Origin: Octopus vulgaris
Lineage: Eukaryota
Direction of reading: 5' to 3'
Length of the DNA stretch: 64,000 nt
NCBI GenBank assembly: GCA_951406725.2
Contig: OX597816.1
Location: 118,916,001-118,980,000, forward strand
Part shown: piece after piece, positions 19,881 through 51,822 of the stretch
Position numbering within the stretch: position 1 is the stretch's first letter
Layout of the letters: every line of letters begins with the position of its first letter
Position numbers and translations under genes: made by a program
The notes under the pieces: generated by a model
Seen by the model: only the letters and a program-made list of their open reading frames with translations
Told to the model about the DNA's origin: nothing
Databases searched by the model: none

Positions 19881-19922
19881 ACACTTAACTGAAGAGACGA
19901 AAACAGGTCGAAATATTGGTGT
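19881..19922 (+). ncRNA. Degenerate hammerhead-like motif
   Basis: ACACTTAA-CTGAAGA-GAC GAAAACAG GTC-GAAATA-TTGGTGT. Core and stem II are canonical; stems I and III are imperfect. Confidence 0.45.
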
Positions 19923-20465
19923 CTTAAAATTCCCCTTAGTCACTAAATCGAGTGTATTGTGAACACACATCGCCTGAATGTAGGTATTCTCTGAAGGCGA
20001 AATACGACAGCGATTAGCATATTCACGTTCAAATCTGCCGGAACCTGCTTAGAATGAAAATGTACATCATAGATTTGATTCGCGCTATTTTACATGATCG
20101 TGATAGCCTATTATGGATTTAGTTTCTGATACTACGCTATCTCTCACTGTTGCTGAATGTTATGATTTAAAGACACATGAATACTCTCACAGGATAAAAG
20201 ATTTAACCCCTTTTGAGGCAGACTTCTTTGATTCACTCACCAATATTAAATGTATATGAACATAATGACACGTGCATGGATATGTGTATGTGCGTATGTG
20301 CGTGTATTGTATGTATGTATGTATGTATGTATGTATGTATGTATGTATGTATGTATGTATGTATGTATGTTTACATATGTATAGACATATATATATATTT
20401 ACACACATATGTGTGTTTGTAAGTATATGTTACACGCGTGTATGAGTATGTATATATATATATAT

Positions 20466-28238: not shown

Positions 28239-28240
<2 letters not shown>

Positions 28241-29697
28241 TGAGAAAGTTGGTGTGTGAAATAATTGTATACCAGGAATCTTTATCGACCTTTGGAAACC
28301 CCCTCTCTCAATACATAAAAGAGAATTGGAAACGATTCCTGGACGATTGTTTTATTCTCTGGAATGAAAACACAGATAAACTCCTAAAATTCAAAAACCT
28401 ATTGAACAGCATCAACCCAAATATACAGTTCACAATGGAATACAACCAAAAGGAGCTTCCATTCTTAGATATACTAATTAAAAAAATTAACCTTAAAATA
28501 GAAACGGACATTTTTTACAAAGCCACAGACGCTAAACAATACCTACTTTTTGATTCATGCCACCCAAGACACACTAAAACAAACATCCCTTTCAACCTTG
28601 CAAGAAGGATATGCACAATAGTGTCAGAACAAAATACCAGGAACTTTAGATTACAAGAACTCAAAAACACCCTAATTGACAGACACTACCCAGCTCAACT
28701 CATAGAAGATGGGATCAGACGTGCAACAGAAATCGACATAGAAACTTTGAGAAAAGTTCAACACAACAACACACCTTCCCCGAAAATACTGCCTTACATA
28801 TCCACATACAACCCCAGAAACAAAGAAGCCTTCACCATCATCACCCAGAATTTACCAATACTTCATAAGGACCCCAAATTAAAGGAAATTCTAAACATAC
28901 ATAAAATCATTAAAAGCTACAAACAACCTAAATCACTTTAAAAGATTCTCACAAAGGCAAAATTGCTCTCTGAAATTACGGATACAAAAGTAAAAAAATG
29001 TGGTAGACCAAACTGCGCAACATGCCCAAACCTTCAAGAAGGATCAGAATTCCTCTTCAAAGAGGGACAAAAATTCAAGATCAAATCTAATTTTACTTGT
29101 GCTTCTGAAAACATAATTTATGTCATAAGATGCTCGGGCTGCCACCAAAACTACGTGGGGTCCACGAGACTATCACTCAGACGTAGATGCACACTGCATC
29201 GACAACAGATTGCATTCCCAGAATACAGAATGATACCCTTTAGTGAGCATATTGAGAAATGCGCAAAGCAACTACTACCACAATTTTTAATCTTTCCATT
29301 TTATCAATGTGCTATTGGAACACCAACACAAATTAGACTAAACAAGGAAACATTCTTCATTGAAAAATATAAGCCCAAACTTAACCACTCTAACATTCTT
29401 ATACAGAGAAACTCACCCCATTAAATAAAAGGGAAAAGAAATATAAAGCGATTATCTCCCTTATATCGGAAGAAATCACTTATTACCCCCCCCTACCTAG
29501 AACTCTTCATTGCACTTCATAACGAAGACATAACACGATGTTTTGAGAAATTTGAAAAGTTAACACGAAACCGGTAATTTCTTCAAAAACTATGTCACTC
29601 TATGAAAAAAATTTATAACATTCTTCTGACATAATGACTCAAATATATTTTTTTACCTTTTAAAACAAGCCTTCTGTAGTTTTTCACTTTTTACTCT

Positions 29698-42361: not shown

Positions 42362-42672
42362 ACATTATTTACATTATTTATATTTGACGAATATGCTCAC
42401 GGGCATATGGCGTAGTGGTTAAGAGCGCGGACTACTAACCCCAAGATTCCGAGTTCGATTCTAGGCAGTGACCTTAATAGTAACAATAACATCAAAAATA
42501 CCTTAGGAATGAGAACCCAGGTTCAGAATTTTCCCAAGACACCTGATGAAGGCTGGAGAGTATATCAGCTGAAACGTTGTGTTAACAACAAACAAGATGA
42601 GGACAAATATCCGTTAAATATAAATAATGTAAATAATGTACATAATTCCTCATCTCTTAAATCTAGAACTGT
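42362..42672 (+). mobile_element. Non-autonomous element with tRNA-like head, hammerhead and inverted terminal copy
   Basis: A box 42408-42418, B box 42451-42461, HHR 42538-42583, 34-bp inverted repeat 42361-42394 and 42607-42640, flanking direct repeat ATCCATCCATCT. Confidence 0.75.
42538..42583 (+). ncRNA. Minimal type I hammerhead ribozyme motif
   Basis: GACAC-CTGATGA-A-GGCTGG AGAGTATA TCAGCT-GAA-ACGT-T-GTGTT. Confidence 0.72.
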
Positions 42673-48237: not shown

Positions 48238-48269
48238 ACAAGAAAAAAGCAACAAGAATGGATCAGTAG

Positions 48270-48356
48270 TTTAGTACAATTGTTTCATACTAAGAACATT
48301 TTATTTAAAGCTGCAAATATTACAGCAAATATAATGTCAAGTATTCATCAGCTAAA
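48270..48356 (-). ncRNA. Hammerhead ribozyme motif (inverted copy)
   Basis: TTTAG-CTGATGA-ATACT...AGTAT-GAA-ACAATTGT-A-CTAAA with a perfect stem I. Confidence 0.78.
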
Positions 48357-50549
48357 TCACATATATGTTTTTCAAACATCCTAGAGAGTGTAAATATCCT
48401 TATCTAGATAAATCTAAAAAACATACAAATAAAAGTAATATGAATAATAACTCTCGTGGGATCAGTAATAATTCAACTAACCCTAACTCTAATTTAAGAA
48501 AATATAATAACGAAAATATAATCTGGTTGAATGTTCCTTTCAACTGCGCGATCTTATCGGATATATACGGCAGATTCAAATCAATACTAGAAAAAAAAAT
48601 TCCAGCCTCTCATAAATATCATAGAATAATTTCTAAGAGAACGGTTAGGATTTCTTACTCAACCCTCCCAAATATGTCCACTATAATAGCTAGAATTAAT
48701 AATAAAAACATTAAATCAGCCAGGAGTAATAAGACTAATATCAACATGAATACCAATAATAATTGTAATAATAGTATCATAAATAAAAATAAAAATAATA
48801 ACAATAATAATAATTATCAAAATAAGAGCGGCATCAACAGAAATGATATAACTAATATTAATAGGAATAATAATAATGGCAATAATATGGGCAATACAAA
48901 TAGAAATAATATCGGGAATGAAGATAACAATTATATCTATAGCAGTAATAAGCATTCAGATACAAATACAAACAATAATTATAGCAATACCAATAATGTT
49001 GGTAATTGTGATATGGCTATGGTAGATCTAAATGATAGTGTAAACGGATCGATAAATAGTGACCCAACTTCAGATAACAATATTACCTATAATAACGAAA
49101 ATAATACTCATAATAATTTGAATAGCAGCAATGTGAGAGATCTTCCCTTAAATAATTCTAAATCTGAAAATTATCCCCCTAGTTGCAATTGTAGGATTAA
49201 GTCAAAATGTCCGGCATCTGGTCGGTGTGGGGTCCATAATGTAATCTATAAATGTACTATAACAACTTCGAATAGTAAATTTTTTTATCTGGGTTGTACT
49301 ATAAATTTTAAGCAGAGAATTAGCAATCATCTCTCCTCTTTTAGGTTAGATCATAAAGCTGGTTGCACCACACTTTCCAGTAAAATTTAGGAACTCAAAA
49401 CTAATAATATTAAATATAACCTAAAATGGGAAATAGTTAGAAAGGCAGTACCTTATAGAAATAATAGGGTGGGTTGTCAACTCTGTTCCATGGAGACATA
49501 TGAGATTCTAAAGCATAGAAAAAATAAAAATCTACTGAATAACCGCATAGAGTTAGGCCTTTCTTGTATTCACTCAAAAATCAAAACTCTAAAATATTTT
49601 AAATTGAAATTTGTAGGTTCTCCCACTGGTGTTCTTTCTAACTGTACCTTTTTAATATATAAATAAATAGTATTTGTACTATGCTAACTTTTAACTGACT
49701 TTATAGTCAATTTAATTAACCTTACTTAAATCATATAAATTGCTAATCTTTCTTAATTCTATTCTAAATTTTAATATGTAATACTATTCCCTTAATGATA
49801 CATATAATTTTCACTATAAATTTTGATTAAGTAAAGTTCCCCTACTATTTGCTATTGAACTTATTTGACCTCTAGATGTCGACCTAAATTCTTTCTTACA
49901 ATATATAAACATAAGTTAAAATAGAAACAATAATAAATAAATAACCTTCTATTCTAGTGTTATCCTTAACTTTCTTACTGTATCTTCCTCTACTGATAAC
50001 TTATGACCCCTTTAATATTTTCCTTAGATCTCTCTGTATTCTTTATCCCACCATTAACTCTGTGAATTTCTCAGTTCAGAGCTGGCGGTGGTCAAACCTA
50101 CTGTTATTTTTTGAATTTAAGATTCCTTCAACACTGACCTAGATCTTCTGTCACCACAGAAATAGACTAACCTTTGTCTGTGGTATCTTTATTCCCTCTT
50201 ACTCCCCCACTCCTTTCCTCCCATAATGTCCTTTACTTTGGCTAAACCTACCTCGCTGTCTTTCTTGCTACTATAAAATTCTGTCTGCAACAGTTATATG
50301 TGAACTGAACCGGTGTGTGACCAGTATCTTTCCTCATGTCTCCTGGAACTTATATCTGCATCTTTATGGATGGATTTACCTTCTCTGAGAAGTTAATAAT
50401 CATTTTTTAAACTTTTTAAAAAAAATTGTGCATTATTGGAAAACATATAAAGTCTGCTTATAATCTTACTTCAAATTCATAGAACTCACTCCTAATACTT
50501 CATAAGGATATTTGACACTCTCTAGGATGTTTGGAAAACATATATGTGA

Positions 50550-50636
50550 TTTAGCTGATGAATACTTGATATTATATTTGCTGTAATATTTGCAGCTTTA
50601 AATAAAATGTTCTGAGTATGAAACAATTGTACTATA
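50550..50636 (+). ncRNA. Hammerhead ribozyme motif with extended stem II
   Basis: TTTAG-CTGATGA-ATACTT..GCTGTAA TAT TTGCAGC..GAGTAT-GAA-ACAATTGT-A-CTATA. Confidence 0.75.
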
Positions 50637-50976
50637 CTACTGATCCATTCTTGTTACTTTTTTGTTGGTTATAATCACCTCACATAATTTTATGGCTAAT
50701 ACCATAAAGAATTCTGGTGCATCTAAGTTAAGTACCATATTCATTTGAATTCATTTGAATTCATTTGAATCTTAATTGTTTTGCTGAAATTATATATATA
50801 TATACATATATATATATATGCTCAAAATGAGGAGTAGACAGACAGCCGACAACTGATGAACGGTCCTTTCTCTGTTTACTTGTCCTGTTTTCTATTTTTC
50901 CTCGTTTTATACATATTTAACTCGTTTGTTTATGTATTTCCTGTTATTTGCACCGTTAGTGATGTCTTATACATAC

Positions 50977-51051
<75 letters not shown>

Positions 51052-51056
<5 letters not shown>

Positions 51057-51732
51057 GTAGTAACAGAAAAGAGGAATTTCGGTTTTCCCCACGTGGTGGA
51101 TTGTAATGTATATAAGAAAAATAAAAACGGAAAATACGCACACTTACATGGTTATAGTATAATTTTTAATGTATCGACCGGTTTCGCAATCGCTATTCAT
51201 GATACAATGTTTAATTTATATGAAAATATATTTTTTCTTAAGAAGAAAATGGGTCCATGTTGTTTATAATGAGATTCACGAGTGAATGATTTTACAAGTT
51301 GACAAGTAAAGGGAGGTAATTGGTTGTTATTATTGTTATTGTTGTCTATAAGGGAGATAACTGTTAAAATATGTGTACAGAAGGGAGATAGGTTTAAAAA
51401 AGGGGGCTTTGTTTAGTAGGGGATTTATGTACAGTAATGTAATATGTAAGAATATAAAAATTGGTTATGCGTGCTTATTCAGACGCGTTTTGTATTTTTC
51501 AATGAAAAAAGTTTCTTTATTTAAGCGTTCTAGTTGAGAGATTGTGTCTTTGCACTGGTAGAAAGGGAAGACTGTAAAATTTGGTTTGATGTTACCTGGA
51601 CATTTTTCTGTGTTCACTAAGAGGGATTTGTCTCGTATTGCGGGAAACGGATTTGATCCTTATGCAGAGTAATTCTCTTCCTCAAACTTAAACTCGTTTG
51701 TCCAATGTACTGATGACTGCAACCCGAGCAGG

Positions 51733-51735
<3 letters not shown>
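51052..51735 (-). mobile_element. Short 3' fragment of a Neptune-type PLE (GIY-YIG and 3' UTR) inside (TA)n
   Basis: ITCSGCSHQYIGQTSLSLRKRITLHKDQIRFPQY is homologous to the 28963-29424 peptide. Downstream minus-strand peptides include FPFYQCK and ETFFIEKYK. Confidence 0.85.
51170..51206 (-). ncRNA. Minimal hammerhead ribozyme, A3-U8 core variant
   Basis: Minus strand: TGTATC-ATGAATA-GC GATT GC-GAA-ACCGGT-C-GATACA, with a GUC site. Confidence 0.75.

Positions 51736-51822
<87 letters not shown>

Follow-up and report, generated by a model that had tools for sequence, protein, structure and literature searches.

An A3-U8 core pair kept across a family of minimal hammerheads from the 3′ repeats of Neptune-like Penelope elements

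The C3-G8 pair in the core of hammerhead ribozymes is treated as near-invariant. In the stretch of DNA analysed here (the window, 64,000 nucleotides), an initial annotation had proposed a hammerhead with A3 and U8 in their place, associated with a Penelope element (PLE), which raises the question of whether such a motif is a real structure, whether the altered pair characterises a family or a single copy, and whether the RNA cuts itself. The motif was found where it had been placed, on the minus strand at 51170..51206, and was assessed by secondary-structure parsing, covariation and a shuffle control. It forms a three-way junction with stems I, II and III in type I order. Stem I has six Watson–Crick pairs, covarying across families, between its 5′ strand (51201..51206) and its 3′ strand (51170..51175). 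The core strand AUGAAUA (51194..51200) places A3 at 51200, U8 at 51195 and A9 at 51194, and all seven of its positions are identical in the 29 family copies found by BLAST. Stem II (51186..51193) is built of two base pairs, closed by G10.1-C11.1, and a tetraloop; A9 stands directly before G10.1, without the extra nucleotide common in minimal hammerheads (min-HHRs), and the closing pair is G-C in 15 of the 17 rows of a representative alignment. The segment 51177..51185 contains G12-A13-A14 and the palindromic stem III ACCGGU (51182-51177), which is predicted to pair with a second copy (duplex −8.3 kcal/mol). By the hammerhead NUH rule, cleavage is predicted 3′ of C17 (51176), in the triplet GUC (site 51175..51176). 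The core holds U4, G5, A6, A9, G12, A13, A14, A15.1 and U16.1, together with the NUH triplet and the G10.1-C11.1 pair; the canonical letters C3 and G8 are absent, and positions 3 and 8 form a Watson–Crick A-U pair instead.

A relaxed descriptor, which accepted any Watson–Crick 3-8 pair and asked for a palindromic stem III and a stem I of at least six pairs, matched the window twice. In 200 dinucleotide shuffles the average was 0.01 matches, two of the shuffles holding one match and none holding two. The folding energy of the monomer was not special with respect to shuffles (z = 0.19), and no Rfam hammerhead match was obtained on 51100-51300 at E up to 10. Rfam finds neither this motif nor the second one, at 29545..29583, its window-wide list consisting mostly of microsatellite miRNA noise; a covariance model built from the two motifs finds only those two and is not independent support. 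Elsewhere in the window, a segment at 19883-19930 (plus strand) matches Rfam Hammerhead_1 with 34.8 bits, just above the gathering score, and has a canonical core and no PLE ORF nearby, and a third hammerhead-like motif at 42538-42583 (plus strand) has a canonical C3-G8 pair, a long stem II and a five-pair stem I. The region 48239-50667 is probably a DNA transposon: it has terminal inverted repeats of 156 nt (96%), and its open frame of 344 aa has no Pfam match.

The A3-U8 hammerhead belongs to a PLE remnant on the same strand. The end of a 5′-truncated ORF encoding a GIY-YIG endonuclease (51465..51736) is frameshifted near 51623-51647, stops at 51467-51465 and matches family copies L017 and L151 at 80-84% in tblastn. 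It is followed by the 3′ UTR from the stop to the hammerhead (51207..51464) and, beyond the hammerhead, by the 3′ end of the element (51054..51169), which includes an optional tail of ~50 nt (~51110-51054) and runs into (TA)n, two end positions being seen among family copies. A further (TA)n is found on the 5′ side of the ORF remnant, the remnant lying between (TA)n tracts, and the window copy is a dead, truncated insertion. A conserved splice-donor-like GTAAGT is found in the family ~27 nt after the cut site (51148-51143 in the window, minus strand), and introns are known in this region of PLEs.

The second motif (29545..29583, plus strand) belongs to a sister PLE lineage. It shares the layout of the first, in agreement with the initial annotation, with a U3-A8 core, a GUA site and different stems I and II. 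Homologous GIY-YIG coding sequence lies 5′ of both motifs, the sister ORF (28240..29424, plus strand) comprising a truncated RT-thumb, a CxxC linker and GIY-YIG, with one internal stop and 62% identity to the protein of the A3-U8 family. Both hammerheads had been placed at the same position 3′ of this ORF; both do lie 3′ of it, but the positions are only roughly equal, the distance from stop to hammerhead being ~265 nt in the A3-U8 window copy and ~127 nt in the U3-A8 element. Family copy L151 has a 635-aa open frame with an RT and, at the C terminus, a GIY-YIG endonuclease, and Pfam gives GIY-YIG and RVT_1 on L017, the latter with 29.0 bits, just below the cut-off of 29.6. A CX2-5CxxC linker, a CxxC within GIY-YIG and a DKG motif were recognised by eye in L151, L152 and L361, the DKG being altered in L151. 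The A3-U8 family has (TA)n targets, inverted 5′-truncated partners in many copies and the optional tail, and bivalves, or assemblies associated with them, are the source of its named protein relatives. By its protein motifs and insertion pattern, the features from which the clade is assigned here, the element is likely Neptune-like, Nematis being a possible alternative.

The altered pair is the state of a family. The family consensus at 3 and 8 is A3-U8, neither canonical nor non-pairing, and both letters are present in all 29 copies that were found by BLAST rather than by motif (a subset of 45 BLAST matches), with six core deviations in 319 cells. Of 714 copies that share one fixed sequence context, 676 have A3-U8, 25 differing at position 8 only, 13 at position 3 only and none at both; such single deviations are as expected from post-insertion decay. 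When positions 3 and 8 were left free, the short scaffold gave 2,215 matches in the 2.8-Gb genome (86 for the reversed-pattern control), 2,014 of which (91%) have a Watson–Crick 3-8 pair: A-U in 1,269, U-A in 664, G-C in 80 and C-G in one. The A3-U8 pattern by itself has a control count of 5. A hand count of the 88 matches with C or G at both positions yielded 80 G-C, six G-G, one C-C and one C-G, canonical C3-G8 being practically absent from the short scaffold in this genome. C17 was found in 27 of 30 A3-U8 loci. The combination of A3-U8 with a stem III of CAUG/CUAG type gave only 19 matches (control 11). The loci L362 and L363 (C5, near 101.4-101.5 Mb) are tandem repeats of ~2.5 kb without a match to PLE proteins, and the stem III palindrome of their A3-U8 motifs is broken.

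The description of A3-U8 as the rarer core has to be divided. It is apt genome-wide, where non-canonical matches with a longer stem II number ~10,400 (control ~1,050) and are nearly all U3-A8 among the matches listed (97 of 100), but within the short scaffold A-U is the commonest pair. Searches with Rfam or based on CUGANGA undercount these elements: non-canonical hammerheads of CCGG type amount to ~12,000 here, against 3,370 matches of a broader canonical pattern (control 714), the canonical ones occurring in other families. A tandem array (L145-L150; C1, near 20.0 Mb), in which every unit of ~356 bp contains a hammerhead with canonical core, has the appearance of a non-LTR retrozyme.

All four Watson–Crick pairs are found at 3-8 in the same scaffold: A-U, U-A and G-C in this genome and C-G in outgroups, where C3-G8 sits on this 2-bp/CCGG scaffold in the PLEs L171 and L220. 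The 128 metagenome and genome-contig loci have mostly C3-G8 or U3-A8 where the motif was found, many being without it; no convincing A3-U8 was found in these outgroup PLE loci, and no relatives were found in viral contigs. A 29-row protein tree was obtained by a quick search with SH-aLRT only, leaving out L224p6423 and L077; the motif labels of outgroups L173, L180, L247 and L248 were read by eye, that of L248 being weak. In this tree all 17 rows from this genome fall into a single clade (SH-aLRT 100), and the nearest rows outside it are C3-G8. Two U3-A8 branches diverge at the base of the clade, and the remaining three groups, U3-A8 (100), A3-U8 (96) and G3-C8 (100), come out in no resolved order. 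The tree suggests the order C-G, then U-A, then A-U and G-C as the simplest path, with five changes and an imperfect outgroup.

Pairing is kept while the letters change. A3-U8 subfamilies separated by ~0.5 substitutions per site (protein) share 11-12 of 12 core letters but 7-15 of 33 flanking ones. Among 17 representatives, hand-picked through motif patterns, 90% of cells pair and both sides change in 12 of 13 pairs, a level reached by none of 500 shuffles and compared with 25-42% for slid partners; the unbiased figures are the scaffold counts with 3 and 8 free and the 29 BLAST-found copies. From the two window elements, covarying stems I and II and a covarying 3-8 pair had been taken as strong evidence for a selected structure. 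Two elements alone are not strong evidence; the claim holds, and is strengthened, with the family and outgroup data, although the covariation rests on few events (the five changes on the 29-row tree). Judged from sequence, the hammerhead is a real, selected structure, in which pairing at 3-8 was preserved.

Several further forms were encountered. A sister PLE lineage has a natural G3-C8 core (the 80 matches above, for example L094, L101, L153 and L162), and A17 occurs in 23 of 27 loci; with C17 in the A3-U8 loci, both lineages thus steer clear of pairing between residues 3 and 17, which would trap the site. This avoidance is not general, since many U3-A8 copies have A17. G3-C8 recurs in another hammerhead, in the end of a short inverted element at approximately L303:2385-2425 (minus strand), where stem II is long and stem III is AUAU. 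Repeated copies of a PLE family in the metagenome contigs L239 and L240 show a U3·G8 wobble, a form that may lie between C-G and U-A. The longer-stem-II families that were placed on the tree (from L299-L328 and L366-L368) belong to the same PLE clade. Some contigs deposited under bacterial genomes or MAGs contain animal-type PLEs (L247-L298; P0036, P0038, P0055, P0071), most likely as host contamination. An independent A3-U8 family within the U3-A8 lineage was considered and rejected, L035 being a singleton (one of three matches).

Explanations other than a ribozyme have to be weighed against these data. A chance match, or a palindromic site acting at the DNA level and unrelated to RNA structure, would fit the folding z-score of ~0 and the silence of Rfam, yet two window matches stand against 0.01 expected and 1,269 genomic matches against 5, and compensatory changes occur in stems I and II and at 3-8; this covariation refutes it, and we give it practically no credence. 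It is also very improbable that A3-U8 is a neutral accident, in which two inactivating mutations in one master element were then amplified. The copy number would in that case reflect amplification only, the passage from U-A to A-U needs two transversions with no wobble intermediate, and the lone double switch in L035, a copy of the U3-A8 family, indicates that such changes can arise singly. Against this, A3-U8 persists across the diverged subfamilies, which have kept core and stems with flanks close to random identity, three sister lineages have each fixed a Watson–Crick pair, and no non-pairing family is seen in the A-U context. The conservation across subfamilies largely refutes the accident.

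The main rival, which we regard as unlikely, is that the fold is kept as a structural or protein-binding RNA element, which would serve in dimerisation or in the assembly of RNPs and cleave hardly or not at all, and that the relaxed catalytic demand let the 3-8 pair wander. The copy ends speak for it: of 43 ends, some of them local duplicates, 28 lie ~115 nt past the cut site, 13 lie ~64 nt past it, two lie elsewhere and none is at the site, so the RNA that was copied was uncut there; the two positions beyond the cut are the Penelope tail signature. Published activities, here and below as given in the sections of each paper that were compared, point the same way. In a pairwise scan of a type III hammerhead only G3-C8 rescued at 3-8 and swaps of the A-U type were low (PMC9901934), a result that counts against A3-U8 activity but equally covers the naturally occurring U3-A8. 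The min-HHRs of metazoan PLEs have low activity in vitro, cleavage being weak and confined to dimers or stem III mimics (PMC4209133). Catalytic mutants of an anole PLE hammerhead still insert in vitro, insertion thus not needing cleavage, and no RNA-seq reads end at the site; that this hammerhead does cleave with its protein, and only then, and is partly rescued by C3G/G8C counts for a ribozyme instead (PMC11167929). A structural role, however, would not obviously need all the residues that are kept across lineages, namely G12, A13, A14, G5, A6, A9, A15.1-U16.1 and a non-G residue 17. Moreover, the 3-8 pair belongs to the active conformation: it is present in full-length and not in minimal hammerhead crystal structures (PMC3884650), so its covariation points at the active fold. 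We consider it likely that this minimal hammerhead of type I, which lies within the 3′ repeat of a Neptune-like Penelope element and has A3-U8 across a family of more than 1,200 copies, cleaves itself slowly at GUC as a dimer, probably assisted by the element's own protein.

In such a slow ribozyme, the 2-bp stem III would be too weak alone, and two copies would pair via ACCGGU into a 6-bp stem III and exchange their stem I strands. In computation only, the palindrome would allow this dimer, at −19.7 kcal/mol as compared with −4.8 per monomer. Hammerhead catalysis uses G12 as the base and the 2′-OH of residue 8 as the acid (PMC6155905). The A3-U8 pair would hold the active geometry by positioning that hydroxyl as general acid next to G12 and, because the acid belongs to the ribose, the base at 8 would be free to change as long as the pair holds. 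Slow cleavage would then act by trimming read-through or tandem transcripts, which would give the following unit its 5′ end or yield circles, and generating the template's 3′ end would not be part of its role. In 30 ten-kb regions, no ORF was found between two intact A3-U8 motifs in head-to-tail order; outgroup L171 has head-to-tail pseudo-LTRs with a hammerhead at both ends, although its 100% repeat may be an assembly effect.

A bolder reading, which we offer tentatively and hold to be possible though somewhat doubtful, is that the clade walked its 3-8 pair through C-G, U-A and then A-U and G-C, crossing the double-transversion step, and that A3-U8 is fully functional in vivo, dimerisation or the RT-endonuclease stabilising a site that is nearly dead in standard constructs. 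If so, searches with a fixed core would miss whole classes of natural hammerheads. Whole transposon lineages are fixed for A3-U8 or for G3-C8 on 37-nt scaffolds that hardly differ, and the natural series of four pairs offers a ready test of the importance of base 8 and of the need of PLE hammerheads to cut.

Small PLE hammerhead variants with a diminished stem III, which cleave as dimers, were reportedly described by Lünse, Weinberg and Breaker in 2017; they resemble the present family in the diminished stem III and the PLE association, dimer cleavage being reported there and predicted here. Hammerheads in PLE repeats and natural U3-A8 were already known (PMC4209133; PMC3088659). The family is like the metazoan PLE min-HHRs of Cervera and De la Pena (2014, PMC4209133), among which U3-A8 was reported in Schistosoma (~1,300 matches), in its type I order, in a short palindromic stem III that implies dimers, in its place in the PLE repeat and in its thousands of dispersed truncated copies. 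It differs from them in A3-U8 (G3-C8 in the sister lineage), the 2-bp stem II, the lack of an extra nucleotide between A9 and stem II and the 6-bp stem I, and the parts of that paper that were compared do not mention A3-U8 or G3-C8. With the natural U3-A8 hammerheads reviewed by Perreault et al. (2011, PMC3088659) it shares 3-8 covariation, a two-pair stem II and a weak palindromic stem III; in that source only U3-A8 is named as natural, its section 8 being without mention of forms with a purine at 3 and a pyrimidine at 8. In the searchable text of the papers that were compared, natural A3-U8 was not found, and the natural exceptions to C3-G8 named there are U3-A8.

The anole PAc hammerhead, of the Poseidon clade (Frangieh et al. 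2024, PMC11167929), is similar in that copies extend beyond the cut site, the hammerhead there lying upstream of two RT start sites that define the tail. Unlike the present family, PAc has canonical C3-G8 and no CxxC linker, and its activity was measured, whereas here activity is predicted. The Neptune-clade PLEs of Craig et al. (2021, PMC8557442) resemble the host element in the RT, the CX2-5CxxC linker and the C-terminal GIY-YIG, and in (TA)n targets, inverted 5′-truncated copies and a tail, but the hammerheads of the Chlamys and Hydra elements in File S2 of that work are all C3-G8. Within the text that was compared, the locus adds to these systems an A3-U8 and a G3-C8 form, each fixed in its lineage, on a scaffold shared with U3-A8 and, in the outgroup, with C3-G8.
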